A stretch of DNA of 44,794 nt from Candidatus Peribacteraceae bacterium (GCA_022843885.1 JALHMU010000002.1:1-44794); one strand, 5' to 3'; numbered from the stretch's first letter, positions 7,961 through 41,070 are shown. Made by a program: numbers and translations. The notes: generated by a model not told the origin, from the sequence alone.

Positions 7961-9241
<1,281 letters not shown>

Positions 9242-18519: not shown

Positions 18520-18540
18520 TCGTATCCTTTGACTACAACC

Positions 18541-22274: not shown

Positions 22275-22396
22275 AAAGTGGGAAATTGCTTAAGGTGCGA
22301 ATATTTCATGGCAAAAGAATGGAAAATATCAAAAATTACTCTGCCAGAATCAATCAAATTGAAAACCTGGCCTAATCGACGGAAGCCCCCAAAAGT

Positions 22397-22960: not shown

Positions 22961-23078
22961 CCGCGATCACGATTTTTCAATGCAATCTCCCTCTTTTGCT
23001 TGAGCACTTGAAAGTCATGCATGAGCAAAAGAGGGAATAAGGAGCTAGAACAAATCTGACCCTTATTGGAAAACGCAG

Positions 23079-23828: not shown

Positions 23829-23910
23829 CCCTTGGATCGATTGGTAATTACTGCAAACGAAAACGCCACGACGTAGAACTGAAGAACATTGCCACTTCAA
23901 GAGACGATTC

Positions 23911-25539: not shown

Positions 25540-25870
25540 AATCTCGGTGTCAGTTAGCGCCCAGTCGTCGTTAGCGGACAGCCAGCCACCGCCTTCTAGC
25601 GGGCGATATATAAAAGCATATCGATGGAATAGACCAACGAATTCTACTATCGCCTCGCTTGCACGAGACGAATAATATTTTGCGCGTGAAAATCTAACTG
25701 GCTGGCCATCAGTGGCCGCCAGCGCTGTTAATCCGGTCGTAAGCGTTCCTCTTTCTAATGAAGGACGAGTTGACCTAACCGGATCAGTGCTTTATGCTTG
25801 CTTTATTCCAGGCAGTCGTCAAACACCTGAATAAAACCGCATAACTGATCCGTTAAGTGATCTCTTCAAA

Positions 25871-25897
25871 CACCGCCTGCAAGCGGTGTTTTTTGTT
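25871..25897 (+). terminator. Hairpin + T-run (caccgc ctgcaa gcggtg ttttttg), conserved with 34803-34830
   Basis: Read directly. It sits in the leader region upstream of the paralogue B gene. An ~18-nt identical core, caagcggtgttttttgtt, is shared with the paralogue C leader. Confidence 0.55.
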
Positions 25898-26036
25898 ATC
25901 CGTTTTTTTTGAGCCCTCCTATTTTTTGGCCTTGAATGGCCAGTAGCATGTGTAAACCCTTTAGCTGACTTTCAAAGTCACTTCTTTCTTAAGCGAGCTC
26001 AGGTACTTGGTTAGCCACTGCCCATGGGGCAGCAAC

Positions 26037-26501: not shown

Positions 26502-26858
26502 CTATAACTTCGGTTCTACGAAGTAGTAAGCGCCATTGCCGCATTTAGAACACTCGCTCCATCTTGCAAATTCGGCTTCGGTCATGCGGTCGTGTTCGGC
26601 GCCCTCGCTAGGTGCGCAGTCGAGGCAGTAAAATTTTGAATTGCTCAAATGGACGCCAAAGTATTTGGCGATCATCGTCAAAGCTTCGTGCATCTCGTTC
26701 TTTGCTTTCTCAGCAGTCATAGTAATCGCGTTTTCTTTTAGCGCGTCTTTCGTTTCGTTATGCAAATTGATGATGCCCTTGCATTTGAAGACGTGGCTAA
26801 TGAGCGCACTTAGCACTAACAAGCGTTCGTTATCGTCAGTAATTTTTAAGTCCGGCAT
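26502..26858 (-). CDS. Small C4 zinc-ribbon protein, copy 2 (paralogue of 18154..18519)
   Basis: 118 aa, collinear with the 18154 copy. The start overlaps the NADAR stop by 1 nt (TGATG at 26858), implying translational coupling. Confidence 0.7.
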   Translation of the reverse strand: MPDLKITDDNERLLVLSALISHVFKCKGIINLHNETKDALKENAITMTAEKAKNEMHEALTMIAKYFGVHLSNSKFYCLDCAPSEGAEHDRMTEAEFARWSECSKCGNGAYYFVEPKL

Positions 26859-27442
26859 CAGGCTATCACCTCCAATAAATCACGTACTTCCATAAGGGCG
26901 AATCCCAGCAGATTCCTGCCTTTCCATAGCCTTGGGTCGCGGGCGCCAGGCGCACTAGCCACCATGCCGATGCCCCATATTTTGTCCCACATACTCGCTT
27001 CAACGAGAATTTTTGGCGTGGTAGCGGCAAGAAAGTCAATCATTTTCGGGTGCGCCGAAAACTTAGCCAGGTTTGCTTTTACGACAATTTGAAAACAATG
27101 GTTTTGCCATTTTTCGCCGTCAAAATTCTGCACTTTTCGACCAAAAGCTTTTGCCTCTTTCGGTGTTTTGCATTCCAGAATATTTTTTAGCATCACCGCA
27201 TCGTCAAACAGACGCGCCTTTTCAGCCATCATGAAATGCTCAGCGGTCAAGTATTTAGTACCATCAATCTCAAACTCGGCAGAAAACCACTGACTAAGGC
27301 AAGCAGCGGTGATACTACCGTCGGTGCTCGACTTGTGACCGTAGAACAAGAGGTAATCAACCTCCTGCCCGTGTTCTAGTTGCTCGATCAGTTTTTCTCT
27401 TGAATATTTCAACGCGGTTCCATAAATTACGGTGCTGTCCAC
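26858..27442 (-). CDS. NADAR (YbiA/DUF1768) family protein
   Basis: 194 aa. YLLFYGHK...LSQWFSAEFEIDGTKYLTAEHFMMAEKARLFDD...PKEAKAFGRKVQNFDGEKW...KANLAKFSAHP...LVEAS.WDKIWGIG follows the NADAR/YbiA consensus throughout. Confidence 0.8.
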   Translation of the reverse strand: MDSTVIYGTALKYSREKLIEQLEHGQEVDYLLFYGHKSSTDGSITAACLSQWFSAEFEIDGTKYLTAEHFMMAEKARLFDDAVMLKNILECKTPKEAKAFGRKVQNFDGEKWQNHCFQIVVKANLAKFSAHPKMIDFLAATTPKILVEASMWDKIWGIGMVASAPGARDPRLWKGRNLLGFALMEVRDLLEVIA

Positions 27443-27849
27443 GGATCGATAACAGGCACGCCAAGGGCTTGAAACGGCGCCACATCGCGCGTAGCGACAC
27501 TGAAATTATGCACGCTGGCGATAGCGCCAATTTGTCCATCAGGCATCGAGACGGCTTTACCTTGGGCGCGCGCGGCGCTCAGTAACTGGCTGTAAGCCAT
27601 GGCAGCAGCATGATCGAATGGCAGGATTCTTGTATCGAACAAGCGAGAAATGAGCAAATCGAGGGCTGCACTGATTGTAGATTTCCGCTTGCCATCAGGC
27701 ATTACAGCGATACCGATCAGAAGTTCTGCCAGGCTGGTGGACGCAAGATACAGCGTCTCGGCTGATTGCTGGTCAAGCCAGGCGATAACTGCCGGGTCTC
27801 TGCCTGGCTTGAGCGCTTCGGACACCACATTTGTATCGAGAACAATCAT
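27427..27849 (-). CDS. vapC: PIN-domain toxin VapC/FitB-like
   Basis: 140 aa. It begins MIVLDTNVVSE, has acidic residues spaced as in PIN domains, and overlaps the upstream antitoxin by 4 nt. Confidence 0.85.
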   Translation of the reverse strand: MIVLDTNVVSEALKPGRDPAVIAWLDQQSAETLYLASTSLAELLIGIAVMPDGKRKSTISAALDLLISRLFDTRILPFDHAAAMAYSQLLSAARAQGKAVSMPDGQIGAIASVHNFSVATRDVAPFQALGVPVIDPWTAP

Positions 27850-28085
27850 TCAAAACTCGCTATGCGTGGGGGTTCCTGTTCGCGCTCTACTTTTAGATCG
27901 TCTAATTTGTATTTGTCGCCGAATGCTGCAAGCTCTGAGCCTACCTTGATCCGCTCTTTGGGTCTTACTGCCGCTTCTAGAATTTCGCGCACTTCCGCTT
28001 CGGTGCTGCGCCCGTTCTGGGCAGCTCTAACACGTAAAGCGCGGTGGGTTTCTTCAGGCAGATTTCTAACTGTAATTGATGCCAT
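27846..28085 (-). CDS. vapB: VapB/FitA-type (Arc/RHH-like, plasmid-stability) antitoxin
   Basis: MASITVRNLPEETHRALRVRAAQNGRSTEAEVREILE is the FitA/StbC-type N-terminus. ATG 28085 is preceded by AAGAGGTG. The longer ORF to 28118 lacks an RBS. Confidence 0.75.
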   Translation of the reverse strand: MASITVRNLPEETHRALRVRAAQNGRSTEAEVREILEAAVRPKERIKVGSELAAFGDKYKLDDLKVEREQEPPRIASFE

Positions 28086-28229
28086 GATTTCACCTCTTAA
28101 ATATCGATTGCACTGCAAGCAATGATATCACATTTCTAATAATGACAGCAAGGCGAAACATGGCGCCGGTTTGTTTCTTCGCCTAAGGCATGGCGGGGCA
28201 CCTGAGTTGGCACCCCGCTATGCCTGCCT

Positions 28230-28697
28230 TTATGGCCACAGGTGGGGCCGGGTCTCTCTGAGGCTGCATGAGCCGTTAGAGCTAACGATCAAGTGATCGA
28301 TAACCGAGACGCCTAGCAGCTTGCCCGCTTTTATCAAGGTTTCAGTGGTTTCCAGGTCTTCCGGGCTCGGACTGAGCGATCCGGCTGGGTGGTTGTGGGC
28401 AACGATTATTGCATACGAATTAGCAAGCAAAGCAGCTTTGAAAACCTCCCGCGGATGCACAAGAGACGCGCTAACAGTGCCATGAGAGACGATGTGATAG
28501 CCGATTACTTGATTCTTTGCGTCCAGGTGAAAAGCTACAAAATGCTCTTCTGAGTAGTGTTTAAGCGGTTCCACAAATCGCTCCAGGTCGTCAGGGCAAC
28601 CAATCGGAACGGGCTTAGCGCCCGGCTCTTTGATAAGTGCAAGGCGCATTTCAGGCACGATGTATTTTAGGTGTTTTTTCAGGGTCCGGCTGTTCAT
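28230..28697 (-). CDS. radC: RadC-like JAB/MPN domain protein
   Basis: IIVAHNHPAGSLSPSPEDLETTETLIKAGKLLGVSVIDHLIV is the JAMM/RadC motif. ATG 28697 is preceded by GGAGGAAA. Confidence 0.85.
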   Translation of the reverse strand: MNSRTLKKHLKYIVPEMRLALIKEPGAKPVPIGCPDDLERFVEPLKHYSEEHFVAFHLDAKNQVIGYHIVSHGTVSASLVHPREVFKAALLANSYAIIVAHNHPAGSLSPSPEDLETTETLIKAGKLLGVSVIDHLIVSSNGSCSLRETRPHLWP

Positions 28698-29096
28698 GCT
28701 GTTTTCCTCCAGTCTAGCTAGGTGCAGGGCTGCGCAGCGCACCCCATGCAGCACATGCCGGTCAGCCCCCAGGCACGGGATCCGGTGTCAATGCCTCCGA
28801 CCGCAGGGAGGACCGAAGGCTTGGGCATTGACACTGGGTGACGGGGGCTAGGCTTATGTGCCGGGCATGGAAGGAAGCGAGCAAGCCCGTGTATCCCGCC
28901 AGGTCTGGATTAAATATGGCTGCGGGGCAGTCTTCGCCAGTGATTTAGGTTTTGCAGTGGCGTAAGAAGTCCTAAAAAACGGGCAAAAAACAACCAGGGA
29001 ATTCCACCTTTCCTAAACGAGCATCTTTGTCCAATGATGTTGTAAGGAATTCCAATCAATCACCCCGCCGTCTGTTTCAGTCTTCGAGGTTCATTT

Positions 29097-29372
29097 ATGA
29101 AAAAAGCAAGTCGCCGCAAGCAAACACAAATGATCGACCGCGAAGCGGTTGAAAATGCCATGCTCGATACGATGCGATTGAGAGCGGCATTGCTTCTTGC
29201 CTGCACCGAGCTGTGCAACGGCGACCCCCTGGAAGGCTGGGGACTGGCGGAAGAGTTTTATGACCAGGCGCCGGCCCTCATCGCAGGTTTAACCGACACG
29301 GGCAAAACCCAATTGCCTTGCGGTCCGGCGCAAGTGCTACAATTTCCGACCAAACCAGATTCAAAGCCTTAG
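29097..29372 (+). CDS. Small hypothetical protein (91 aa)
   Basis: The ATG is preceded by GAGG, and a strong terminator follows at 29399. I recognise no motif. Confidence 0.4.
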   Translation: MKKASRRKQTQMIDREAVENAMLDTMRLRAALLLACTELCNGDPLEGWGLAEEFYDQAPALIAGLTDTGKTQLPCGPAQVLQFPTKPDSKP

Positions 29373-29398
29373 TGGACGAGGATTAGGATAAGGAATTA

Positions 29399-29430
29399 GG
29401 CGGGGGCAAGCCCCCGCCTTTGTTTTTGTT
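29399..29430 (+). terminator. Rho-independent terminator GGCGGGGG-caag-CCCCCGCC + T-run
   Basis: A perfect 8-bp GC stem at 29399-29418 is followed by tttgtttttgtt. It lies between the convergent 29097 (+) and ssb (-) genes. Confidence 0.8.
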
Positions 29431-29815
29431 ATGCGGCTGCCTTACTCTTACGAGCGGACTTCGCTTCGCTCGACTTTTCAGATTCAGGCTTTTTGCCACA
29501 GAGGTGGAATCCCGAGAGCTTCACCACCGGACGTTTCATCTCGACCTTAACGCCGTTGATTTCCTTCATGTATTTGGAGATTGAGAGCCTGCCAGCAATT
29601 GCAACTTCGCGTCCTTCAGTTATGTATTTCATAACCCGGTCAGCAAGCCCGTTCCAGGACTCGACATCAATCCACATAGGCTCCGGATTGTCGGTTTTGG
29701 ATGAGTAGTCGGCCACGGCTAGAGAGAACTTAGCCAGTTTGTTGTCCGTGTCAGTGAAGGTTGTTGAGGTGGGATTTTGACCGACGCGACCGATGAAGTT
29801 GACTTGGTTGTTCAT
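29429..29815 (-). CDS. ssb: Single-stranded DNA-binding protein (OB fold) with basic rather than acidic C-terminal tail
   Basis: MNNQVNFIGRVGQNPTSTTF....AKFSLAV......W..VESWNGLADRVMKYITEGREVAIAGRL is a typical SSB OB fold. ATG 29815 is preceded by GGAGG. The tail ends KSARKSKAAA. Confidence 0.8.
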   Translation of the reverse strand: MNNQVNFIGRVGQNPTSTTFTDTDNKLAKFSLAVADYSSKTDNPEPMWIDVESWNGLADRVMKYITEGREVAIAGRLSISKYMKEINGVKVEMKRPVVKLSGFHLCGKKPESEKSSEAKSARKSKAAA

Positions 29816-30231
29816 AAGATGGCACCTCCAGTGCTGTGTTTGAGTGCCAAAAGACACGCAACTGTTTTCGTGAGTGCAAGGACGCCGAGGCGCGGAACGC
29901 AGTGGAGTTTATCCTTGCACGGTAGAAAACCGGTGCCAGAGTTAGGCACTTTCTTACACAGCCCTGGGGTAGCCAGATATGCACAACCAACGAACATCAA
30001 GGCGCAGAGGTCTTCTCGCCTTAAGAACCATCAAAACGGACAATAAAAACGTGAGTTCTCTAAAGCCTGAAGACACTCATCACAGGACAATCCGAGACCA
30101 AACTTGATGTCGAAGAAAAGGACTAGTTGACCGAGCCAGAGATAACCGAAGACGCGTACAAACTAGACAAGCTCTCACTCTCCACAAAGGAATAAACGGC
30201 GTTAGAGATGAAACGCCAGGGCTCTCAAAGA

Positions 30232-31026
30232 TTACGGCAAACAAAAAGCGCAAGTCTGACATGGGCGAAGCGAGTCTTTCTGAGCCTTTAGAGCAAGGTT
30301 GCCCATAGCAGCAGGGCAGAGGGTGAGCAGGTCATGTCGCACAGGCTCTACATGTCGCCCACCTCGGTGATAAGGAAAACTAACGATGTCTGTTTCAGAA
30401 TCCATCACCTCGAAAGATCGAATAACTCCCGAATCCAGGTCGCTGTCCTGCAAGAGAGCTAGCTTCCAAACTGCTGCAGGCGTTTTGCACAATGCCAAAA
30501 TCGCTTGTTCATAGTTCTCAGAATCAACCGAAAGCCAGCCCTGGCAGTTGGGTAGAGCCGCTAATTCAGTCAACGCATCGAACACAAGTCCGGGAGCAAA
30601 ACTTCTGGTGTAAAACCAGAACTTGCACCCAGTGTACTTTTGAGCGGTTAGCATCCAAGCACGAACGTAATCGACGGAGAAAAAATCTCCCACATCGTGG
30701 ATACGCAAAGTCCAAGGGATTGTAGTTTGCACACCAGCAATCCTGGCAGTGAGCCAATCGCGTGGGCGTGCTTGATCAACAAGCATCGAAAGATTTTCAG
30801 CCAGTAGCTCCGGGCCGCCCTCGTCAAGGAGGAATTGCAAAGTCCGCAAATTACGAGCCCGCTTTGCTTTCTGACCTTGACTTTGATAGCGGATTCCGTT
30901 GCCATAGCATAGTCGTTTGCAAAGTGTAGTCGCATTGATGCATGTCTCAGTCCGTGGAAGACTGAATGCCCATCCTACTTTGCTGTTATTGGTCAGCTCC
31001 AAACCATAATCAAGAGTTATTGCCAT
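30232..31026 (-). CDS. GP88-like (phage/plasmid gene product 88 family) Cys-rich protein
   Basis: FSLPRTETCINATTLCKRLCYGNG at the N-terminus and CPAAMG....CQTCAFC at the C-terminus match my recollection of PF17338-type proteins. ATG 31026 is preceded by GGAGA. The 5' extension to 31218 looks non-coding. Confidence 0.5.
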   Translation of the reverse strand: MAITLDYGLELTNNSKVGWAFSLPRTETCINATTLCKRLCYGNGIRYQSQGQKAKRARNLRTLQFLLDEGGPELLAENLSMLVDQARPRDWLTARIAGVQTTIPWTLRIHDVGDFFSVDYVRAWMLTAQKYTGCKFWFYTRSFAPGLVFDALTELAALPNCQGWLSVDSENYEQAILALCKTPAAVWKLALLQDSDLDSGVIRSFEVMDSETDIVSFPYHRGGRHVEPVRHDLLTLCPAAMGNLALKAQKDSLRPCQTCAFCLP

Positions 31027-31310
31027 CGTCCATTTCTCCATGAGCCTAAACTGGCAGCACGCGCTGCTGTGGCTCGCCCCCCGGCTTGGCTCCGGAGCGA
31101 CTACGTCAGTAAAAAATTCAGGAGAAAAAGAGACAAGGCGGTCGCGCCGGTGGTGCAAAGTCGGGAGAATGGGCGAACCAGCGCGGCGAGAGCAGGAACA
31201 ACCTGGTCTTGGGGGCAACCAATAAGACTCAGGAAATTTTCAAAAATCGTTGCCATAATCCAGCCAAAAGTTCTCGCTAAAGTAATTTCAGTGAGCAAGG
31301 CGGGCGGATT

Positions 31311-32702
31311 ATGGCAAGACTAGAAGACCTTCAAAACCGCGAAACACAAGGTATTGAGTCACGAAATGCCGCCTTTCTTTCGCAATCTGTACAAGATTTG
31401 TTTGAGACAAAGTTTGGTCCAGGTATTCAAAATGCTTTGCCGGAACTATTAGATTTTGGGGCAGGGCCGGACTTATACCTGTCGGCCGCTTATACTGATG
31501 ACAGCCGATCTTCAGCGGGTGTTTTCATGGCGGACGAGTCAGACAACAAACCAGAGGTGCCTAAAGTACAGTCCCCGTGGGACGCTCTACGTCGTCCTGA
31601 TGCCATCCGGACGAAGGAAGACGAGGCGATTTGGGCCAAGATGCAGGAGCCCCATAAGCTCGGAAAGGATGAGTCTGCCACGCATATCGGGCTTACGCCA
31701 GAGGTGGTCGCTGATATGCAGAAGAAAGGACAGGCGTCTAAACTGGTCTTTTTTGACAGCGCAGCCGAAGGCGCTCTGTCTGCACTCCAAGAAACGGCCA
31801 AGGAAAAGCCGACTTTGTTGGCGAATGTTCCTGAAGCCCAAGATGTCGTTTCCGACATGACCAGGGGCGGCCTGCCGATGCCGGGGACGTTGCTTCCAGA
31901 GCCATGGATGCTCAAGGCCGGTGCTGATCTGTTTCCTACTTTCTGCAAGATCGCTTTGAACGCAACATCGGCCAAATTCCAAGAAACGTTTGATGCTGTG
32001 AAGAAAGCCGTAGTCAATCCTATCGAGCATCCTTTCCGAGGACATGAAGAAGCGACGCTAGCCCTTGTTCCACAGGCTAGTTGGAGCGAAGCATACAAGG
32101 CTTTCCCTGACCTGAAGAAGATTGGTGGATTGTCAGAAGAGCAGTCCACCAGACTAATGAAAGCGATTGTGGGCAATGAATTGACCTTTTACGGACCTGA
32201 AGACAAAGCGCAGGATGCAATTTGCGTGGCCGGACAAGGAAGATTCATAATGGGCAAAACGGTAGGATTCGCACAGATAGCCCCTGAAGGAGTGCGCAAA
32301 GTCTCTGCTGAATTCGATGAAGAAGTTAAGAAGGGCAGTCGGGCGATGAATCCGCTTGCGAAGCTAGCAGCACTTAGCGACGACGAACTAGCAAAAGCGA
32401 TGCTGAAGCCAGAGAATGTGCCGGTCTTAGTCGCGGCAAACATCGCACACAATCTAAAAATGTTTGCCAACCATGCAAGCGAAGTGGAGATAAACCCACT
32501 GACACTGGGCTATCAGTTCAATCCGGACTGCGTTTATGCAAAAACAGACACAAAACACTCGAAAATATTGAGCACGAAAGAAGCTCGCAAAATGGGTCTT
32601 GGTGACGATGATACGGTTACAGCGTTGCCGTCAAAAAACGTTCTGGCAAAATCGGAACACGCGCACAACATTGAAAAATGGCTCAAGAAGCTGGGCGGCT
32701 AA
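31311..32702 (+). CDS. Large hypothetical protein (463 aa)
   Basis: A long ORF divergent from the GP88-like gene. There is a possible lytic-transglycosylase-like stretch (GNELTFYGPED...GKTVGFAQIAPEGV), but this is weak. Confidence 0.5.
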   Translation: MARLEDLQNRETQGIESRNAAFLSQSVQDLFETKFGPGIQNALPELLDFGAGPDLYLSAAYTDDSRSSAGVFMADESDNKPEVPKVQSPWDALRRPDAIRTKEDEAIWAKMQEPHKLGKDESATHIGLTPEVVADMQKKGQASKLVFFDSAAEGALSALQETAKEKPTLLANVPEAQDVVSDMTRGGLPMPGTLLPEPWMLKAGADLFPTFCKIALNATSAKFQETFDAVKKAVVNPIEHPFRGHEEATLALVPQASWSEAYKAFPDLKKIGGLSEEQSTRLMKAIVGNELTFYGPEDKAQDAICVAGQGRFIMGKTVGFAQIAPEGVRKVSAEFDEEVKKGSRAMNPLAKLAALSDDELAKAMLKPENVPVLVAANIAHNLKMFANHASEVEINPLTLGYQFNPDCVYAKTDTKHSKILSTKEARKMGLGDDDTVTALPSKNVLAKSEHAHNIEKWLKKLGG

Positions 32703-32989
32703 GATTTTTTCGTGACGATTTTGATTATTTCGTAAACGCCAAGGCCTAATGCTCCAGAAGCAAAGCCGCATGCAGCCCCTATCACAAGTGCAAACTTTAG
32801 CGATTCGGTTTCGTCACCGGGTTGTTTTATTTCCCAACCGGCGAACCGAGCTCGTGCTCGGTGCATGTCTTTAAGACCATAGTCATACCAGTGCCAGACG
32901 GAAAGTCCGCCAATAATAAAAAACGGTAGCAGAAAGGCAATTAACCGCCCTTTGGAAAGGAATTTTTTTCGCCCTGGTTGATCGTCCAT
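32699..32989 (-). CDS. Small membrane protein (two predicted TM helices)
   Basis: 96 aa with hydrophobic segments LIAFLLPFFIIGGLSVW and FALVIGAACGFASGALGLGVY. It converges with and overlaps the 31311 gene by 4 nt. Confidence 0.45.
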   Translation of the reverse strand: MDDQPGRKKFLSKGRLIAFLLPFFIIGGLSVWHWYDYGLKDMHRARARFAGWEIKQPGDETESLKFALVIGAACGFASGALGLGVYEIIKIVTKKS

Positions 32990-33034
32990 CGTTCAAGTAT
33001 AAAACTCTCGCGTTAGCATGCCAGGCTTCAAACT

Positions 33035-34642
33035 TTAGAAAGCGGGCGGCCCCCTGGTCTTTGGGAGACTTTCGTGTACGACGGACCGCCCAGTAATAAC
33101 AAAACACAGATCCGAGCCACTGGACTGCTGATAATTAGAAGACACGTAAAGAATTGAAGAAGCCAAAGAACTGACCTGTTCAGGCGGCGCGGACGTTACT
33201 TCAGGAACAACTAAATTGTCTTCTTGAAGAAGGTCAGGAGCTTCCTGAACGAGATCAGGAACGATTGAAATGAACAGGGCCGGGCGCTCCGGCGGCCTAA
33301 GATCGCCTCCCCCGTTTGACAACCGGAATATTCCCCAGATATCTACATGGCGCCGGATCGTCTTTCGGTCGCAGCCGGTGACGCGTTCCAATGCCCGCAC
33401 ACTGACCCGCTTGCCATTTTCCAGCAGTAGCAGTACTCCACTGCGAATTTGTTCGCGCGCGCCTTCTTCCCTTCCGACATTGCCTTTTCTGAAATCGTCG
33501 GGGCACCAGACTCGTCCAGTTTGTTTTGTCAGTCGTATTAGGCGATCGATTGCGCGATCGCTAAGGTTGGAATAACTGGGCTGGCTTTGGTGAGAGCGCT
33601 CAGCGCCTTCAGAAGGCGTCCAATTGCAAGCGGACTGTATATCCCGTCCTATTTGGCCCCAATCGCCTTTCAAAACCGATTTTGAGAAGCCGTTGTGTTT
33701 TTCTCGCAGCCAGGCTTCGATTACTTGGGCCCTTTGCTCAGCACGAGCCACCCCTGGTAATGCCCTGACACCTTCGGCTACGTCGCCATACCAGAGGTAG
33801 TGCCCAATAGATAAAACCGCCTGGTGGCGTTGAGAAGGCGCGGTCAGCCCGTTTAACCAGAATTCGCGACCGGCGTTATAAACGTCCGGTAGCATGCCGG
33901 CGAAAGTGAAGAAGTCGGAAAAGCCGTCATCTGGCGGATCTTGCTCCGGCGTCGCCGGCGGAACGATATCGGTCGCGGCGGCGGATTCAATGGCTTCTAG
34001 CCTGCGTTTTATACAATCCTGGACGTAGTACCAATCATGACTGTTTGCGTCCAGGTCCTCGACAAAGGTAGTTATTGCCTGATCAGTGGAGATGTCTTCT
34101 CTTGTAAATCTAGTTTCCCCTTGGTCATCCAGCCAGGCAAAGCCGCGTTGTAGGGGCAAGCGGAGCCCATTGTTTGACGGGAAGAGTTCAAGCTGACCTT
34201 TTCTGACTTCAATTCCTTCAGCCAGTAGCCATCGTTTGAAAAGGTCGTGACTTTCTCTGCTATCAACTAATTGGTCAAAAGCCAAGTAAATATGCCAGCC
34301 TTCGCTTTCACTAGATTGATACAAGAGCGGATTCAGTAGCCCGACCGACGAAAGCAGGTGTTTGAGACGGGCAAGACCAATTTCGTTGTGATACTGGCTT
34401 TCTATATCAACATCAAAAACAGAAACCTGTGACTGCTTGTCCCAACGACATCCCCAAAAGCATTTTTCCTTCAATGCAATTGCAGACAAAATAGTGTCAT
34501 CTGTGAGATGTCCGTGGCGGCTGACAGTGACCCAATCGCGGTGCGGCCATTTCAATATGCTTCTTTGCCTGTTCGGAAACAGCGACAAAAATCTTTGTCG
34601 CACGTCCTCAAAAGCAACTTTAGTTTGCGCGCTCAAATCCAC
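33035..34642 (-). CDS. AEP/prim-pol-like replicase-type protein with C-terminal HTH (paralogue C)
   Basis: 535 aa. The motifs are VSVFDVDIES (DxD), SESEGWHIYLAF (sxH) and GLRLPLQRGFAWLD. The middle block GLTAPSQRHQAVLSIGHYLWYGD is shared with paralogue B. The C-terminal HTH is VSVRALERVTGCDRKTIRRHV. Confidence 0.6.
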   Translation of the reverse strand: MDLSAQTKVAFEDVRQRFLSLFPNRQRSILKWPHRDWVTVSRHGHLTDDTILSAIALKEKCFWGCRWDKQSQVSVFDVDIESQYHNEIGLARLKHLLSSVGLLNPLLYQSSESEGWHIYLAFDQLVDSRESHDLFKRWLLAEGIEVRKGQLELFPSNNGLRLPLQRGFAWLDDQGETRFTREDISTDQAITTFVEDLDANSHDWYYVQDCIKRRLEAIESAAATDIVPPATPEQDPPDDGFSDFFTFAGMLPDVYNAGREFWLNGLTAPSQRHQAVLSIGHYLWYGDVAEGVRALPGVARAEQRAQVIEAWLREKHNGFSKSVLKGDWGQIGRDIQSACNWTPSEGAERSHQSQPSYSNLSDRAIDRLIRLTKQTGRVWCPDDFRKGNVGREEGAREQIRSGVLLLLENGKRVSVRALERVTGCDRKTIRRHVDIWGIFRLSNGGGDLRPPERPALFISIVPDLVQEAPDLLQEDNLVVPEVTSAPPEQVSSLASSILYVSSNYQQSSGSDLCFVITGRSVVHESLPKTRGPPAF

Positions 34643-34802
34643 TGAGCGCGCCGAAGCATGTCCGGTAATTGTTTGTCACCCGTAATTTTTGACGAGTTGA
34701 CCTATCCGGACCGTTGGTTTATTCTGGTGTCACTTCGGAAAAATAGCCAAAAATCCGACGACAACTGAATATCTTGAGGTCCGCAAAAGATCTCTCAAAA
34801 AA

Positions 34803-34830
34803 CATCGCCCCCAAGCGGTGTTTTTTGTTT
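34803..34830. terminator. Hairpin flanked by an A-run and a T-run (aaaaaa catcgc ccccaa gcggtg tttttt), homologous to 25871-25897
   Basis: Read directly. It has bidirectional terminator-like geometry and lies in the leader of the paralogue C gene. Confidence 0.55.
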
Positions 34831-35020
34831 AGTTGATTGTTTGAGTCAGCGGTTCTGCTTTCTAGGGAGCCGGGCTCCAGATGTCTAACGGATATGCATT
34901 GGTTTTCTTTGCCAAGTGCCACCAGCCACTATATAAGGTGCCTGGAAATCGATCAACACTTTGGATCTCTCAGAAGCGGATCGCCGGGCAGTTCAACCCA
35001 TGCAGAATTGAGCCTGAAAT

Positions 35021-35592
35021 GCACTTCGTGGTGCTAAACCGTGTGCATAAGCCAATTGCCAAAAGGCAGAATAGGGATACCCGAAACAAAGACGAAACGA
35101 CCGCGAAGTTTTTCGGACTATCGCGAAGCGCCACGAAGAACCCCGAAGAGTCACACAAAGAAATAGACCAATGCACCACGAAGCACGCAGAAACGCCCAA
35201 TCATCAAACAGGTTGGGACCTTCCGGGTTTCAGCAAATTCCACCAAAACCACTTCGTCCTCTCACTTCGGGGTAGCGCGAAGAGCACCACGAAAACCTTC
35301 GGGGCGTTCCGAAACACTTCTGGATATACCACCGAAATGATTTCGCAGTTAGTTCGCGATGACTTCCGCATGTTCGGGTTGAACTGTAAAAGCCAACAAC
35401 GGCAAGGGTTAAGGGAAATTCTGTCTAGTTCGGGGCATTCGGAACGAACGCGAAAAACCAAAAGGCGCTATATCACCGAAAATTTTTTATCGCGAAGAGA
35501 TCCACCGGCGGCGGTTTTGCGAACTAGGTCGTTTCAGGGTCTACCTCGAAACGATTTCTTGCTAATTCTTCGCCCGCATGGATGGCGAAGAG
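35021..35592. repeat. Repeat-dense non-coding spacer: many copies of a CGAAG-core motif in both orientations
   Basis: GC(A/G)CCACGAA(G/A) occurs at 35021-35034 (inverted), 35129-35138, 35173-35183 and 35284-35294. CGCGAAG occurs at 35102, 35122, 35276 and 35491. CCCCGAAG occurs at 35141 (+), 35265 (-) and 35298 (-). CGAAGAG occurs at 35144, 35278, 35493 and 35586. Confidence 0.7.
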
Positions 35593-35706
35593 TTTGAATT
35601 AAGCGGTGATTTTTGGTAGTTGTAAAATAGCTGAAAGGCTCTATAATACAGGTGTTCAGGCATTCAATATATCCAAATGATGCGCCACTAGATATGGAGC
35701 CATGGT

Positions 35707-36525
35707 GTGAAAACTATATCGGTCAGAGAAGTCGCAGAAGCTTTAGGAATTTCTACGAGGGGGGTTTTGTACCGCCGAGAGAAAGGACACCTTAAAGGCA
35801 TTCTTGTAAAAAACGAACGCGGCGTCGATGAATATCGGATCTACCCGACGAAGGAAATTATTGAAGGTCTAAAAAAGATCAATTCGCCCCTCGTAGCATC
35901 ACCAGACGCAATCGAGGGGTTTGATGTGGTCGATGCTCAGACTGTTACCGAAGAGGACACAATCTACGACTCGACTTTCGGCCCTGATGATGTTGTCGAA
36001 CCAACTCAGACAACGTCACAAAGATCTGAATGGTCGGACAATGCGAGGACCGCAGCCAATGGCATGGCAGATGAGCTATGGAATAACGTTATCAGCCGTT
36101 TCATGGAAAAGCTGGAGAAAAAAGACCAGTTAATTGGTGAGATGCGCGTTGAGATACAGGAAAAAGACAGGCAACTAAAGTTGCTACCGGATTTTCAAAA
36201 ACAAGCAGAAGATAAACGAAAAGAAGCCGAGTTGAAGGAGCTTGAGGCTGTAGCTTTGCGCAAACAAGTGGACGCACAAAAGGAAGCAAAAGAGACCGAG
36301 ATAGCGCAATTAAATTCAGATCTTGAAACAGCACGAATGGAAAGAGAAGCCAAAGAAGAAGCAGCAAAACTGTTGGAGCAGGAAAACGAGCTACTGAGAA
36401 AACGAGCTGAGGAAGCTGCTCTAAGCGCAGCGAAGCTTGAGCTGTTGGAAAATGAAATTTTACTGTTGAAGAAGCCCAAACCGTCCTGGTTTCAAAAACT
36501 TTTTATGCCTGCAGACGGACAGTAG
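35707..36525 (+). CDS. HTH + long coiled-coil protein, module partner of paralogue C
   Basis: 272 aa. The GTG start is preceded by GGAG (35696-35699). ISVREVAEALGISTRGVLYRREKGHL is the HTH, followed by an acidic linker and then a ~130-aa Glu/Lys-rich coiled coil. The architecture matches 2701..3348. Confidence 0.65.
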   Translation: MKTISVREVAEALGISTRGVLYRREKGHLKGILVKNERGVDEYRIYPTKEIIEGLKKINSPLVASPDAIEGFDVVDAQTVTEEDTIYDSTFGPDDVVEPTQTTSQRSEWSDNARTAANGMADELWNNVISRFMEKLEKKDQLIGEMRVEIQEKDRQLKLLPDFQKQAEDKRKEAELKELEAVALRKQVDAQKEAKETEIAQLNSDLETARMEREAKEEAAKLLEQENELLRKRAEEAALSAAKLELLENEILLLKKPKPSWFQKLFMPADGQ

Positions 36526-36576
36526 CTGGCGGAAAAGGAATAAACGAAAAACAATGCCAACAGTCAGATAAGTTGC

Positions 36577-37170
36577 TCAGTTGCGAAGCTCGGTTTTCAC
36601 TTTCATTACTGTTGTCTTGCTAATCCCCAATTCATTGGCAATGTCACGCACCGATCTTCCCTCGGCTATCAGCCTTTGTACACGCTCGGAACGATCAAAG
36701 CCTGGTCTTCCGATAGCCTTTCCACTTTTAGTGCCTTTAGAACGGGCGTGAGCTATCCCAGATTTGATTCGTTCACGCAGCAAATCGTTTTCGAATTCCG
36801 AAATGGCAGCCAACATATTCAACATCAATTTGCCCTGGGCAGTGGAAATGTCGAGGTCCGGTCCATTGAGGGCACGAAGAGCAACATTGCGGTCCGATAG
36901 CTCCTGAACAGTGGAGCGCAGGTCGGGTGTGCTCCGGCCCCAGCGAGACAACTCCGAAACGAGGACCAAATCAATTTGTCCTGCTCTGGCAAGTTCCAGG
37001 ACCTTTTTGCGTTCCACGCGATCATTTTTGGCGCCACTACCGATTTCTTTAAAAATGGCGACGATATTTAAAGTGCCGACGGCTGCATAAGCTGTTAATT
37101 CGGCTACCTGGCGTTCGCAAGACTGATCACTTGTGCTGACCCTGGCATAAATTGCTGTTCGCTGTACCAT
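36577..37170 (-). CDS. Serine recombinase (resolvase/invertase family), intact
   Basis: MVQRTAIYARVSTSDQ carries the catalytic Ser motif. It also has VLVSELSRWGRS, the E-helix GKLMLNMLAAISEFENDLLRERIKSG and a C-terminal HTH RSVRDIANELGISKTTV. ATG 37170 is preceded by AGAGGG. Confidence 0.85.
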   Translation of the reverse strand: MVQRTAIYARVSTSDQSCERQVAELTAYAAVGTLNIVAIFKEIGSGAKNDRVERKKVLELARAGQIDLVLVSELSRWGRSTPDLRSTVQELSDRNVALRALNGPDLDISTAQGKLMLNMLAAISEFENDLLRERIKSGIAHARSKGTKSGKAIGRPGFDRSERVQRLIAEGRSVRDIANELGISKTTVMKVKTELRN

Positions 37171-37487
37171 AAACCCTCTTGGCAAAATGCCCATATTAGT
37201 CCGGACTGGTTGGGCGTTTCAGGCGAAGTAATTACCGTACCACAAAGGTAATAGTTTCTGGCACAGCAATCAGCAGTTGTCGTTAGGGGTAATTCGAGGC
37301 CCATCATTACGGGTGCAGGTCTCAACTCGCCAAGCTGTGGGTGTTACTGGACGACATCTGTAGAATTCAGCGCCAACGGAAAAATAGATTGTTCGAGGTT
37401 GGGAAGTGCGTTGAACGATTTTGATTTCAAGATCGGGATCGAGCCTTCCTTCAAAAAAATCACTGATGGCCTCGAGCTGTCCAAAGG

Positions 37488-37919
37488 CTAGAACTGCGAG
37501 CGATTCGGCGAAGTGGCACTGAAATTACCTTTCTCTTGAACTGCATCAGGTTCACCGGCCCATCTTTTGAGTGTTTCCAAAAGTTTGTTTTGACTACAGT
37601 CTTTTGGGATGAATTCATCCATTCCTGCTGCCAGACATCGTTCTCGAATATCTCTATCACTATCAGAGCTAAAGCCAATTATAGGAACATGGCTCCCATC
37701 CTGAGTTTGATACATCCTCATCTGCCGAGTGCATTCAAAGCCATCCATTCTTGGCATACTGCAATCCATGATGATTGCAGCATATTGCCGAGTTCTACAG
37801 AGTTCAATTGCGTCCTGGCCGCTTGTTGCTTTATCAACTGAAAAACCGAAAGATTCGACCGACAGTGCGGTTCCTTCCAGCACTATAGGCGTGTCATCGA
37901 CGATTAAAATCGTAGGCAT
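37488..37919 (-). CDS. Single-domain response regulator (CheY-like receiver)
   Basis: ILIVDDTPIV, AAIIMDCSMPRMDGFE and CLAAGMDEFIPKD are canonical receiver motifs. Confidence 0.8.
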   Translation of the reverse strand: MPTILIVDDTPIVLEGTALSVESFGFSVDKATSGQDAIELCRTRQYAAIIMDCSMPRMDGFECTRQMRMYQTQDGSHVPIIGFSSDSDRDIRERCLAAGMDEFIPKDCSQNKLLETLKRWAGEPDAVQEKGNFSATSPNRSQF

Positions 37920-38206
37920 TATCTAAGTTTCGCCCGCTCAAATAAGCCCCAACCGGAAATGAGGATCACGCGAATTCTCTGCCACGTGTCACTTGCCTCT
38001 TCTTCGCGTCCTTGAGCTTCATACAGGTCGTGGAGTCCGAGCAAGACAGAACCGGCCAAAGGACTGTAATAGCCTTCGCAGACTTCGGCTTGCTGCAATG
38101 CGTGCTTGTACAGGCGTTCCGATTCAGCAAAATCGCCTCTCGCAAGCGCAGCACCTGCAAACTCAGAACGAGCCTCTATGACACGAATTTGCAATAACCG
38201 ACACAT
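37919..38206 (-). CDS. Small TPR-like helical protein
   Basis: 95 aa. ARGDFAESERLYKHALQQAE and LHDLYEAQGREEEA look like TPR-type repeats. The stop overlaps the start of the receiver gene. Confidence 0.4.
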   Translation of the reverse strand: MCRLLQIRVIEARSEFAGAALARGDFAESERLYKHALQQAEVCEGYYSPLAGSVLLGLHDLYEAQGREEEASDTWQRIRVILISGWGLFERAKLR

Positions 38207-38327
38207 ATTAGCTCCCTCATCTTTCTATAGAACTTATTCCCGCAAAGCAGGCACCTATGACTATTTACCTGTGTTAATAACGGTAGTCTATTTGTCCGCT
38301 CGACCCTGTAGGGCGGACATTTTGCAC

Positions 38328-38567
38328 GTGAAAACCGGAAATAAAACAGTCAGGCAATTTGGAAAGCGTGTGCGCGAGCTGCGGCTTTCGAGACGTTGGA
38401 GTCAACAGCATTTAGCTTCGCTCCTGGACGTAGAGCAGGCTTACGTTAGCAGCATTGAACGGGGTGAGTATGGCCCGTCGCTTCGCCGTGCAGCTCTTAT
38501 TTCAGAAGCTTTTGGACTTTCTCTCTCCGAGTTGTTTTCCGGTATTGGACCGTGCCTGCACGGTTAG
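38328..38567 (+). CDS. XRE-family HTH transcriptional regulator
   Basis: FGKRVRELRLSRRWSQQHLASLLDVEQAYVSSIERGEYGPSL is a Cro/C1-type HTH. I chose the GTG start at 38328; the upstream part of the 153-aa ORF looks non-coding. Confidence 0.6.
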   Translation: MKTGNKTVRQFGKRVRELRLSRRWSQQHLASLLDVEQAYVSSIERGEYGPSLRRAALISEAFGLSLSELFSGIGPCLHG

Positions 38568-38763
38568 TGATTTCTCCTGTATGACTTTGCGGGTAGCCAA
38601 GTGCATTGTGGCTCAACTTTACTCTCTTTGCTAACAACCGTTCGAATGATTTTTTTTATTAAATTTTGAAGCCTCGCTTTTGTGATTAGTGGAGGGCTAA
38701 AGATCGCAATGACCGATTATATTAGGTCGCCAATCGTCGCCTAGTTCTAGGACAGTTGCGTCC

Positions 38764-39006
38764 ATGAACCAAGAGAGGCGCATAGTTAAGACACTCGGCA
38801 GGCAAGTCAAAAAGCAGCGCCAAGCTCTGGGCTGGTCGCAGATGTTTTTAGCAGCAGAAGCCGGACTGGATAAAGGTTACATCGGCAGCATAGAGCGAGC
38901 CGAAGTTAATCCGTCGATCAAAAAAATAGCAAGAATCGCTGACGCTCTCCAAGTGCGGGTGATCGACCTTTTGGACGACGGACGTAATTCTCAAGGACGG
39001 TTCTAG
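38764..39006 (+). CDS. XRE-family HTH transcriptional regulator
   Basis: LGRQVKKQRQALGWSQMFLAAEAGLDKGYIGSIERAEVNPSIKKIARIADAL. Confidence 0.7.
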   Translation: MNQERRIVKTLGRQVKKQRQALGWSQMFLAAEAGLDKGYIGSIERAEVNPSIKKIARIADALQVRVIDLLDDGRNSQGRF

Positions 39007-39053
39007 GCAAACTGGCCTGTCTGTTTCATGATGGAAACAGGCAGGTGATTCTA

Positions 39054-39344
39054 ATGACGTATTCAGACAAAACGATAGTTTGCCGCGATTGCGAAAAGGG
39101 CTTTGTGTTCACAGCCGGAGAGCAGGAATTTTATGCGCTCCGGCAGCTTTCGAATGAACCTAAACGTTGTCCAAACTGCCGTATGGCTTCCCGAATCAAA
39201 CGGGACGGCGGTGATCCAGAAAGGCAAATAACCGAAACCCCATGCCACGAATGCGGTACCCTAACGCGGGTTCCATTTAGACCAACAGGCGCCAAACCCG
39301 TATATTGCTCAAGTTGTTTCCGAAAGCAAAAGTTGCAGAAATGA
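39054..39344 (+). CDS. Zinc-ribbon protein of the CxxC-x17-CxxC type
   Basis: CRDCEKGFVFTAGEQEFYALRQLSNEPKRCPNCR plus CHECGTLTRVPFRPTGAKPVYCSSCF match the motif as I recall it from cold-shock/DEAD-box-associated small proteins. Confidence 0.6.
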   Translation: MTYSDKTIVCRDCEKGFVFTAGEQEFYALRQLSNEPKRCPNCRMASRIKRDGGDPERQITETPCHECGTLTRVPFRPTGAKPVYCSSCFRKQKLQK

Positions 39345-39766
39345 GATTAAACATTCTCGTTGTGATGGATATCAAGCCAGACAGGCTGACGATTACCGGT
39401 CTGAGACTTTTGAATGAGGCTATACACTCTTTTGGCTACAACCCAGTCGTGGCCCGCGATTCTGATGACGCTTTACGCATCCTAAATGAAGGCAACATCA
39501 GTGCTGTGCTTTGTACCGTGGGACTCTATAACGGAACGGCTTTCGATCTACTGCTTGCTGCAAAAGCCCAAGACCTGGTAAGCATGCCATTTATCGTTGT
39601 GACGGTATCCCAAACCCCTACTCAAGATCAGATCTTGACGATAGGTTGCGAATCAACAGGCGCAATTTACTTCAATATGGGCAACTACGATTCAAGAGAA
39701 GAAATGCGGCAGGAATTGAAAAAGCTCTTGCTTAAGTTCGATGAGCAAGGTTGTTCTGCGTTTTAG
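39341..39766 (+). CDS. Receiver-like domain lacking the phospho-acceptor Asp (pseudo-receiver)
   Basis: The receiver fold pattern is present: ILVVMD..., ISAVLCTVGLYNGTAFDLL and PFIVVTVS. The DD pair reads MD and the acceptor position reads C/T. The start overlaps the upstream stop (ATGA). Confidence 0.5.
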   Translation: MRLNILVVMDIKPDRLTITGLRLLNEAIHSFGYNPVVARDSDDALRILNEGNISAVLCTVGLYNGTAFDLLLAAKAQDLVSMPFIVVTVSQTPTQDQILTIGCESTGAIYFNMGNYDSREEMRQELKKLLLKFDEQGCSAF

Positions 39767-39903: not shown

Positions 39904-41070
39904 ATGAAAAAACAGAAAAAGCCCGTGAATAAAGCGAAGGCATCGCAGTCCTTCAGCAAGCAACCTGCGAAAACGTCTCACAGAGGGCTTTCCTGGATTG
40001 TTTCGGGAGTTCTTCTGACGGTAATCGTCCTTGGACTTGGCTTCGCTGATGCTGCAAATGCGAGAAATGCATTACTCCAAGAAGCGGCTATCAGAGCGGC
40101 CTCCAGACGAATGTCGAATGGCGCAGGCAACTATCAATCAGGGGAATCATATCGCCTTCCGGCAAACGCCAAAGCAGCAAACCGCGAAGAATCAAAGTTA
40201 CTTTTGGCTCAGGGAAGTGGCTCAGAGAGCCAAATTACTTACGATCCTTTTGGTCGCCTGGTCAAGATTGTTGATCCAGAAAGTACTGTTAGGCAATTTG
40301 TTTGGCTAGGGGATCGCATAGCAGAAGAGCGCGATGGAAGCGGTTCCGTGACGAAGCAGTTTTTCGATTGGGGCGAAATCATCGGCGGTACAAAATACTT
40401 TTACACGCGCGATCACTTAGGTTCAGTGCGGGAGATGACCGATCAGAGCGGAAGCGTTGTTGCACAATATAGCTACGATCCGTTCGGCAACGTCACCAAG
40501 ATCAAAGGCTCTGGCGCTGATTCTGACTTCCTTTTCGCTGGTTATTTCTATCATCGTCCCAGTGGTTTATATATCACTGCGCACCGGCTCTACAGTCCAA
40601 AACTTGGACGGTGGCTGAGTCGCGACCCACTTAACGAGCCTGAATTCAACATGATGCCTACGAATCCCGATCCCGATGTGCCTCAAGCCATGCTTGTCTC
40701 GCAGCTCGATCCGATGAGTGATGCTGTTGCAATGCAAAACGATCCCCGGCTCGCCGCCTTTGCTCCGCTGGCACGTACAGCGGGAAATAATCCTGAGATG
40801 CAACGTCACATCGCTAGCATGATTCCACGCATGCCGGGGCTTCATCAGCCCAAAATGCCAAGCAACGGCAATTTATACGCGTATGTGAACAACAATCCCG
40901 TGAGCTTTCGCGACCCGTCGGGACTGGATGGAGATTGGGCTTGGTGCTCTGAATTCTGTTCGCGCAACACGAAGAGCGCCCTCGGTTGGCTAATTTGTAT
41001 GATGTGGTGTATGGACAACACCCATCAACCAAAATGTCCGCCCGCATCACCGCCTTGGGGACAATTCTAG
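39904..41070 (+). CDS. Minimal RHS/YD-repeat core protein with N-terminal membrane anchor and a 47-aa Cys/Trp-rich C-terminal tip
   Basis: YDPFGRLV and YSYDPFGN are YD repeats. AHRLYSPKLGRWLSRDPL ... NLYAYVNNNPVSFRDPSGL is the RHS repeat-associated core ending in the DPxGL cleavage motif. The N-terminal anchor is LSWIVSGVLLTVIVLGLGF. Confidence 0.8.
   Translation: MKKQKKPVNKAKASQSFSKQPAKTSHRGLSWIVSGVLLTVIVLGLGFADAANARNALLQEAAIRAASRRMSNGAGNYQSGESYRLPANAKAANREESKLLLAQGSGSESQITYDPFGRLVKIVDPESTVRQFVWLGDRIAEERDGSGSVTKQFFDWGEIIGGTKYFYTRDHLGSVREMTDQSGSVVAQYSYDPFGNVTKIKGSGADSDFLFAGYFYHRPSGLYITAHRLYSPKLGRWLSRDPLNEPEFNMMPTNPDPDVPQAMLVSQLDPMSDAVAMQNDPRLAAFAPLARTAGNNPEMQRHIASMIPRMPGLHQPKMPSNGNLYAYVNNNPVSFRDPSGLDGDWAWCSEFCSRNTKSALGWLICMMWCMDNTHQPKCPPASPPWGQF

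Follow-up and report, generated by a model that had tools for sequence, protein, structure and literature searches.

The window analysed here is a stretch of 44,794 nucleotides from an assembly labelled Candidatus Peribacteraceae bacterium (GCA_022843885.1, JALHMU010000002.1:1-44794). The locus of interest, at 33035-37194, comprises a gene for a protein of the archaeo-eukaryotic primase (AEP) superfamily, a long intergenic spacer, a divergent gene for a protein with a helix-turn-helix (HTH) and a coiled coil (hereafter HTHcc), and a small serine recombinase gene. The three open reading frames (ORFs; 535, 272, and 205 aa) were found where a first-pass annotation of the sequence had placed them. 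Region 30537-39474 is 99.98-100% identical in GCA_001464165.1 (contig LNEX01000029.1) and JGI 3300002461, and region 7882-24399 is 100% identical in these independent assemblies; because they reproduce 30537-39474, the gene arrangement, including the recombinase, is not an assembly artefact. The locus contains the following features, each given with its basis.

33035-34642, minus strand: AEP gene, candidate for the replication initiator (Rep), 535 aa (ORF call)
34697-34725, plus strand: antisense RNA promoter, TTGACC-17-TATTCT (consensus scan and conservation)
34732-34833, plus strand: predicted antisense RNA (countertranscript), ~100 nt, three stem-loops, inside the rep leader (covariance model)
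34796-34827, plus strand: hairpin of the intrinsic terminator of the antisense RNA, formed by its last stem-loop and a U-run (consensus scan)
34928-34956, minus strand: predicted rep promoter, TTGATC-17-TATAGT (consensus scan)
34966-35619, no strand assigned: variable spacer segment rich in motifs; 13 degenerate CNCGAAG/CTTCG sites (shuffle test)
35620-35647, plus strand: predicted promoter of the HTHcc gene, TTGTAA-16-TATAAT (consensus scan only)
35707-36525, plus strand: HTHcc gene, 272 aa (ORF call)
36577-37194, minus strand: small serine recombinase gene, 205 aa (ORF call)

The family of the 535-aa protein is unannotated, as scans of Pfam and NCBIfam gave no curated match to it. Its AlphaFold2 model has pLDDT values above 90 at residues 10-225 and 250-340 and is disordered from residue 444. 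The protein was divided as follows.

Residues ~1-225: AEP prim-pol domain (D77, D79, H117, E152)
Residues ~240-343: helical domain without a structural match
Residues ~362-440: putative winged helix, weakly supported
Residues 444-535: disordered tail

With Foldseek, the best match of the model was the CRISPR-associated Prim-Pol CAPP (E 8e-9, TM 0.66-0.68). The top 12 matches were all AEPs, including the LigD polymerase domain, HP0184, and the S-2L PrimPol, with RepB', pRN1, and NrS-1 ranking lower; the AEP matches span E values from 8e-9 to 5e-2, and all significant matches belong to the AEP superfamily. The family profile matched a single PDB sequence, the Prim-Pol domain of Marinitoga CAPP (7nqd/7nqf, E 0.003), with the DxD motif, the GWH/GYH histidine, and the glutamate of "eiFP" all aligned. 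The AEP motifs occur in order, with D77/D79 as motif I, S113/H117 as motif II, and E152 as motif III, and an alignment of 40 sequences shows D77, D79, S111, S113, H117, E152, and a PLQxGFxWL block to be invariant or nearly so. The strings FDVDIES, SEGWHIY, and LRLPLQRGFAWL, from which an AEP/prim-pol identity had been proposed at first sight, are indeed present, and their residues are among those kept across the 40 homologues; motif III, placed at that time in LRLPLQ, is more likely E152 in LELFPS, which aligns to the CAPP "eiFP". The DxD, histidine, and glutamate are intact in 84 of the 103 family genes, that of the 535-aa protein among them. Based on the Foldseek matches, the profile match to 7nqd/7nqf, and the conserved motifs, we consider the modelled AEP prim-pol assignment secure, with a complete active site and a predicted primase and/or polymerase activity.

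The C-terminal half was modelled separately (mean pLDDT 84.5) and gave no significant fold match, only local winged-helix resemblances over its last ~55 residues; a PriCT or helicase identity for this half was rejected because the fold search did not support it. No SF3/DEXDc helicase or DUF3854 match of the kind found in primase-helicase Reps was obtained with Pfam, and no helicase-like fold was seen. The coding sequence of the disordered tail contains a 21-bp tandem repeat (33220-33260), where the window differs from GCA_001464165.1 by a 39-bp length polymorphism.

A database search retrieved 152 homologues, all hypothetical proteins, and those with a named source come from metagenome-assembled genomes (MAGs) of Candidatus Obscuribacterales or "Cyanobacteria bacterium". 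An exhaustive profile search yielded 326 representatives at 50% identity with E <= 1e-30 and 950 with E <= 1e-10, and a scan of one genome per species returned 155 relatives, nearly all in Obscuribacterales/Melainabacteria MAGs and often at least 5 per MAG. Some family contigs are binned in MAGs of unrelated phyla; these are probably mis-binned plasmid contigs. Loci in MAGs labelled as unrelated taxa are L008, L018-L020, L025, L033, L049, L051, L062, L063, and L073, and the labels include Hyphomicrobiales, Chloroflexota, Sphingobacterium, Simkania, Nitrososphaera, Rhodoferax, Flavobacterium, and others. A phage origin of the family was rejected, as no relative was found in IMG/VR or in GenBank phage records.

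We called and clustered the ORFs of 91 loci. The AEP cluster comprises 103 genes in 87 loci, and the HTHcc cluster (cluster 1) comprises 83 genes and accompanies the AEP gene in 77 of these 87 loci, where it lies upstream of the AEP gene in divergent or co-directional orientation. Three architectures were observed. In architecture A, which is that of the window locus, the HTHcc gene is divergent and the AEP gene is followed by genes for a 96-aa membrane protein, a 463-aa protein, GP88, SSB, and RadC. In architecture B, co-directional HTHcc and AEP genes precede a ribbon-helix-helix (RHH) gene, a MobA/VirD2 relaxase gene, and a further RHH gene, sometimes with a type IV coupling protein gene (Pfam). 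In architecture C, a divergent HTHcc gene precedes a short AEP gene, an HTH_37 gene, and a 600-aa AEP gene.

Eight family contigs of 6.1-12.1 kb have identical ends of the assembler k-mer length (55, 77, 127, 141, or 149 nt), which indicates that they represent circular molecules. All eight carry AEP and HTHcc genes, and most also carry RHH and MobA/VirD2 relaxase genes, sometimes with a type IV coupling protein gene. Ten further ORFs scanned on five of these contigs included no other known Rep family and matched YfdX, TPR, or cupin families or nothing. Among the ORFs scanned, relatives of the AEP and HTHcc genes are the only recognisable replication functions on these small, predicted circular, mobilisable plasmids. 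As no other Rep family was recognised in that scan and most of the contigs bear a relaxase gene, the AEP protein is most likely the replication initiator of a plasmid family. The earlier suggestion of a self-replicating element thus holds at the level of the family.

A link to a model plasmid came from a tblastn search of PLSDB, which gave weak N-terminal matches on the Synechocystis plasmid pSYSG and on a Pseudanabaena plasmid. On pSYSG, the hypothetical protein WP_223211249.1 (NC_005231.1 13695-15104, locus L001) is homologous to the family over its full length (hhalign probability 99.7%, E 6e-27, 358 columns), and its gene lies ~1.8 kb from the ParA/ParB genes with one 187-aa ORF between. 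The Rep of pSYSG is listed as unknown, and the known cyanobacterial Reps are CyRepA, with DUF3854 and DEXDc, and CyRepX, which is helicase-like (PMC10899382, PMC10079941). By homology, WP_223211249.1 is a candidate Rep of pSYSG. The covariance model of the antisense RNA described below found no match in pSYSG. Extension of the HTHcc pairing to this plasmid was tried and rejected, since the 187-aa HTH protein downstream matches the partner profile in its HTH only (probability 33%).

The most conserved element of the spacer, the antisense RNA gene with the rep promoter, had been missed in the first-pass annotation. BLAST and nhmmer place a ~170-nt element directly 5' of the AEP start, in constant orientation, at more than 60 loci; where two loci share only 31-38% protein identity, this element still reaches 68-81% DNA identity. 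Alignment of its antisense strand reveals an invariant TTGAC, a 17-nt spacer, and TATnCT (TTGAC and TAT..T being invariant or nearly so across 42 aligned loci), and ~100 nt past this promoter come a GC-rich hairpin and then GTTTTTTGTTT, which is nearly invariant. The rep-promoter hexamers recur 85-97 nt beyond the terminator or 3' end of the antisense RNA in many loci. With the rep promoter at 34928-34956, the predicted rep leader of ~280 nt should therefore span the whole antisense RNA gene.

Three stem-loops are common to the single-sequence folds of 42 versions of this RNA. A covariance model that was started from six sequences and refined in one iteration found 49 copies in 82 sources, all upstream of and antisense to an AEP gene. 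Two of them lie within the window, at 34732-34833 and, upstream of a further AEP gene described below (paralogue 3), at the following position.

25805-25901, plus strand: second antisense RNA copy (covariance model, 72.8 bits, E 1e-11)

In the covariance-model alignment, which is fitted to the model and favours the predicted structure, 95.4% of the cells at paired positions are paired, versus 32-52% with slid partners, 15 of the 17 base pairs show compensatory double changes, and the covariation score is 0.469 versus 0.04-0.13 in slid controls. RNAalifold on a plain MAFFT alignment recovered the terminator only, the other two stems requiring the covariance-model realignment. The antisense strand has 65 G-U cells versus 12 on the rep strand, which indicates that the folded molecule is the antisense transcript. 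Scans of the window against Rfam and for tRNAs were empty, and the predicted antisense RNA, having no Rfam match, would define a new RNA family. With a predicted promoter and terminator of its own, a position antisense to the rep leader, and conserved stem-loops, the RNA at 34732-34833 is probably a copy-control countertranscript.

The remainder of the intergenic region had been described as a 1-kb repeat spacer. Its length stands (1064 bp), and in place of long repeats we found only a short, degenerate motif, CNCGAAG/CTTCG, with 13 occurrences in the 654-bp variable core (p = 0.002 versus shuffles for 5-mers). TRF found no tandem repeats in 34643-35706, and the motif sites are irregularly spaced, so that no iteron-type origin, with tandem direct repeats of ~17-22 bp at regular spacing, is apparent. 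The contigs of 87-91%-identical relatives all stop or diverge at window positions 34939-34965, which divides the spacer into a conserved portion next to rep and a variable portion farther away. In a 91%-identical relative (L088), unrelated sequence with TTGCGTC repeats replaces the variable part, and relatives with 69% protein identity and conserved synteny carry another HTHcc gene and a spacer of 370 bp; the HTHcc gene and the array segment are therefore exchanged as a unit at the rep promoter. Divergent HTHcc-AEP spacers are bimodal in length, at 250-440 bp or 570-1500 bp (median 820, n = 50), and the 1064 bp of the window are ordinary for the family. Of 29 distinct long spacers, 18 contain a short, often palindromic heptamer repeated far above shuffles (CTCCGGA x17-19, TCCGGAA x15, GTCTAGA x10-14, GACGCAA x11). 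A 238-aa ORF within the spacer (34881-35597) was treated as non-coding: Pfam gave no match, 90 loci contained no homologue (no database search was made with it), the rep promoter overlaps it, and the sequence of the 91%-identical relative departs from that of the window inside it.

The N-terminus of the HTHcc proteins matches Pfam HTH_17 in 38 of 50 members (best 3e-10), and its best PDB profile matches are BldC (6amk/6ama) and Xis gp37. In the window, the 35707-36525 protein reaches HTH_17 at E 0.068 only, and a second HTHcc protein (2701-3348) at E 4.4e-5 and 24.1 bits, versus a cut-off of 27. The two are only weakly similar in direct comparison (E 0.002) and fall in the same cluster by transitive homology; neither has a match to KfrA_N. 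From these profiles, the 35707-36525 product is a predicted Xis/BldC/MerR-like HTH protein with a ~130-aa coiled coil, a conserved partner of the AEP protein and a putative DNA-binding protein.

The recombinase at 36577-37194 combines a Pfam Resolvase catalytic domain (1.9e-38, 132 bits versus a cut-off of 23.3) with a C-terminal HTH_7 (28.1 bits versus 23.8) in 205 aa, as in small serine recombinases of ~200 aa. At this length it does not resemble the large serine integrases, which exceed 400 aa and have Recombinase and zinc-ribbon C-terminal domains, and XisF/Ccr models cover only its N-terminal 145-160 residues with scores far below their cut-offs. It had been counted as part of the module, and the identical gene is present in GCA_001464165.1; because the otherwise syntenic relatives L003, L004, and L007 lack it, it lies outside the core module. 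Recombinases of this kind, and small ones of the tyrosine type, turn up here and there next to other replicons of the family, and a search for res or att sites around the gene yielded only weak, chance-level repeats. The gene is read most economically as an accessory one for multimer resolution or inversion rather than as an integrase gene. That an intact recombinase accompanies only this AEP copy was borne out, the sole other trace in the window being an 82-aa HTH_7 serine recombinase remnant at 16204-16452 (minus strand). Near this remnant, other assemblies of the same population diverge at ~16544 and carry Transposase_mut with an integrase or a resolvase; by this comparison the region is a rearrangement hot spot.

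We read positions 33035-36525 as a plasmid-type replication module of an undescribed family typical of Obscuribacterales (Melainabacteria), the non-photosynthetic relatives of cyanobacteria to which we assign the block itself, and give this reading a probability of roughly 0.7. The 535-aa protein would be the Rep and would recognise the origin through its C-terminal helical and winged-helix part. It would lay the primer itself, after which the host replisome would take over, as with ColE2 Rep, RSF1010 RepB', and pRN1 ORF904. The antisense RNA would pair with the rep mRNA leader and limit Rep synthesis, thereby setting copy number and incompatibility, and the HTHcc protein may act in autoregulation, partition, or handcuffing by binding the motif array of the spacer. 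The recombinase would be an add-on, most likely a multimer resolvase. A wider proposal is more tentative, and we hold it at somewhat under even odds: that this is the founding replicon family of Melainabacteria plasmids and includes the missing Rep of pSYSG, with a helicase-less AEP initiator, a new origin-recognition domain, a new family of three-hairpin antisense RNAs, and, in some elements, a dead AEP paralogue as regulator or origin-binding subunit.

Several observations weigh against the replication-module reading. The window is not circular and carries respiratory and other cargo genes, and both of its flanks are syntenic in the 69%-identity relatives; the window copy could reside in a chromosome or be a relic that no longer functions. 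The small contigs are called circular on the basis of assembler overlaps only. No replication origin was located in our analysis of the locus, and the spacer motif is weak in the window, reaching significance for 5-mers but not for 7-mers. The antisense RNA stops 90 nt short of the rep start codon and may either block translation at a distance or cause attenuation; the rep transcription start is a consensus prediction only. As to the setting of the window, three replicon modules in 45 kb, together with toxin-antitoxin (TA), RadC, SSB, GP88, and toxin cargo genes, fit a multi-replicon plasmid, and the lack of tRNA and rRNA genes in the window also counts for a plasmid. Plasmids with several Reps are common in cyanobacteria (PMC10899382). 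On the chromosomal or stably inherited side stand the two-sided synteny in diverged relatives and the respiratory genes. A megablast search of window 30-40 kb against PLSDB gave no match.

The integrating element that the first-pass annotation had allowed for would be an integrated plasmid or integrative mobilisable element residing in the chromosome, with the recombinase as its integrase and the AEP protein used only after excision. It would account for a linear, 45-kb window with genes for cytochrome c biogenesis, P460, NDH-2, and a sigma factor, for the genes that the 69%-identity relatives share with it on either flank, and for the proximity of the recombinase to the module and of tyrosine integrases to other family copies. 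We nevertheless consider it unlikely: the recombinase is a 205-aa resolvase type without a large C-terminal domain and is missing from the syntenic relatives, and eight relatives are on predicted free circles. Insertion of an element at 33.0-37.3 kb found no support either, as relatives have the block at the same locus with both flanks conserved. No att-like flanking repeats were found in a search for att-type junctions, and no genuine tRNA gene lies beside any of 44 loci (~650 kb of flanking sequence, with one dubious ARAGORN call of undetermined four-base anticodon in L027). The block is polymorphic internally and its family has a plasmid context, so that its presence at the same locus in relatives does not refute the first-pass proposal of self-replicating or integrating elements.

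If the conserved 170-nt element were instead a DNA origin, its hairpins would be single-strand initiation sites, like ssiA/ssiB of RSF1010, and it would not be an RNA gene; its place directly upstream of the primase gene and the failure to find another origin candidate would suit this, and covarying hairpins would form in single-stranded DNA too. This we judge improbable, since conservation is highest in a properly spaced -35/-10 pair and in the U-run that follows the last hairpin, which all lie on the same strand, and since the asymmetry of G-U versus A-C (65:12) fits a transcript of the antisense strand; origin and RNA roles are, however, not mutually exclusive. Still less probable, and in our view very remote, is a role of the AEP protein in a conflict (defence) system akin to TOTE or to CRISPR-associated Prim-Pols, in which it would act as effector or sensor. 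The CAPP Prim-Pol is its best structural match, toxins, TA pairs, RHS, and HNH genes lie nearby, and the sole Pfam/NCBIfam hints, both in paralogue 3 (23911-25539), are to AEP-TOTE (PF22548, 23.8 bits) and PrimPol_Msp (17.6 bits). Both scores are below the curated cut-offs (27 and 200 bits, respectively), however, and Pfam scans of the window and neighbouring ORFs revealed no cas families and no TPR-effector or other TOTE partner. Moreover, the gene is carried by small, predicted circular, mobilisable plasmids, with no other initiator recognised among the ORFs scanned, and a leader antisense RNA with promoter and terminator is typical of rep control.

The window contains two further AEP copies, at 26% (paralogue 2) and 33% (paralogue 3) identity to the 535-aa protein.

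508-747, minus strand: HTH_37 gene after paralogue 2 (Pfam)
794-2038, minus strand: paralogue 2, catalytically dead AEP (motif comparison)
2701-3348, plus strand: HTHcc partner of paralogue 2 (cluster 1 member)
23911-25539, minus strand: paralogue 3, AEP with an intact active site and no HTHcc partner (motif comparison)

Both paralogues announced by the first-pass annotation are thus real, although they are not versions of one module, as it had supposed, and represent with the 535-aa gene three architectures. Its recurrent AEP/HTHcc pairing likewise applies to 794-2038, whose partner at 2701-3348 belongs to the same HTHcc cluster, and not to 23911-25539. Paralogue 2 has ISIPAT in place of the DxD and has lost the acidic residue of motif III, with the motif II histidine kept; all 17 first-of-tandem genes of architecture C (among the 103) likewise lack the DxD and this acidic residue and keep the histidine. 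Elsewhere, this subfamily always lies before an HTH_37 gene and an active 600-aa AEP gene, which points to a putative pseudo-enzyme subunit or regulator. Past the HTH_37 gene there is a 20-bp x3.9 array (41-119) in place of an antisense RNA, and the window ends just beyond it; the array consists of four iteron-like direct repeats (GGTGTCAnTTAATTTGCG), with inverted copies at ~370-500. Paralogue 3 starts at a TTG and has its own antisense RNA; ~60 homologous N-terminal codons (25540-25720, minus strand) precede this start in frame, with no ATG, GTG, or TTG, and either a rare start codon or an N-terminal truncation would explain this.

The segment that follows the 535-aa gene in architecture A is a further feature of the window.

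26502-32989, no strand assigned: plasmid-type backbone with c16, NADAR, PIN, RadC, SSB, GP88, the 463-aa protein, and the 96-aa membrane protein (Pfam)

These backbone genes also follow the AEP gene in relatives, and the family of the 463-aa protein (c4) also occurs on the predicted circular plasmids L021 and L034. The 463-aa protein itself (31311-32702, plus strand) has no Pfam match and contains a GFAQI/GYAQIT motif, which presumably recalls lytic transglycosylases. In the 69%-identity relatives L003, L004, and L007, synteny extends over RHS, HTH_3, TPR, and response regulator genes on one side and GP88, SSB, and RadC on the other. The NADAR gene (26858-27442) is missing from the 91%-identical relative L086 by a clean indel of ~500 bp, and a group II intron reverse transcriptase gene not found in the window lies between SSB and RadC in L003 (16272-17522) and L004 (9874-11124). 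The window also carries cargo of the conflict type (18541-20700, 39904-41070, 4459-5601, and 16557-17759), with genes for a toxin deaminase and a SUKH immunity protein, for an RHS-repeat protein, and for two HNH_5 endonucleases.

We know of no genetic tools for the uncultured non-photosynthetic lineages of cyanobacteria, and in the literature searched we found no description of their plasmids. A defined minimal replicon, consisting of the rep promoter, the antisense RNA, the AEP gene, and the HTH partner, would be a starting point for vectors, and for the model plasmid pSYSG, whose replication gene is listed as unknown, the family supplies a candidate that can be tested. The antisense RNA family is suitable for submission to Rfam, the AEP family could serve as a marker for plasmid contigs now mis-binned in MAGs of many phyla, and the tandem of dead and live AEPs could show how primase-type initiators are regulated.

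Among known systems, the ColE2-type plasmids offer a parallel in initiator and control: their initiator is itself a primase acting at the plasmid origin, an antisense RNAI of ~100 nt acts on the rep mRNA leader, and no plasmid helicase is present. The family shares with them a putative primase-type initiator, a predicted ~100-nt antisense RNA in the rep leader, and the lack of a plasmid-encoded helicase, but no sequence or profile similarity was detected, and its HTHcc gene and motif arrays have no ColE2 counterpart. With RSF1010 RepB' (3h20) and pRN1 ORF904 (1rni, 3m1m) it shares the AEP fold (Foldseek E 2e-3 to 5e-2) and the order of an AEP domain followed by a helical domain, which in those proteins serves the start of plasmid replication. 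RepB', however, works with a separate RepA helicase and RepC initiator, neither of which is found in the family, and ORF904 has a fused helicase, whereas the family has none and its helical domain is unmatched among solved structures. The Marinitoga CAPP (7nqd, 7p9j) is the closest solved structure and the only PDB profile match, with DxD and histidine aligned, but identity is only 16-17% and the family locus has no CRISPR/cas context.

BldC/Xis-type proteins bind arrays of adjacent repeats, and KfrA is a plasmid protein with an HTH and a coiled coil. HTH_17, BldC, and Xis are all matched by the HTH at the N-terminus of the partner protein; BldC and Xis, however, have neither the long coiled coil of the HTHcc proteins nor their conserved tryptophan-rich motif at the C-terminus. 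Unlike KfrA, the HTHcc partner has no KfrA_N, and a separate KfrA_N protein is encoded in some family loci. CyRepA1/A2 and CyRepX1/X2 come, like the family, from the phylum Cyanobacteriota (PMC9978351, PMC10079941, PMC10899382), but they combine DUF3854 (Toprim-like) with DEXDc or are helicase-like, whereas the family is an AEP without a helicase and matches none of them. A likeness to asRNA1 of pSYSA lies in a three-stem-loop antisense RNA just upstream of the Rep gene (PMC9978351). By analogy, the replicon would thus resemble the ColE2-like, antisense-controlled primase-Rep systems in kind, and differ from them in its protein family, its domains, its partner protein, and its arrays.

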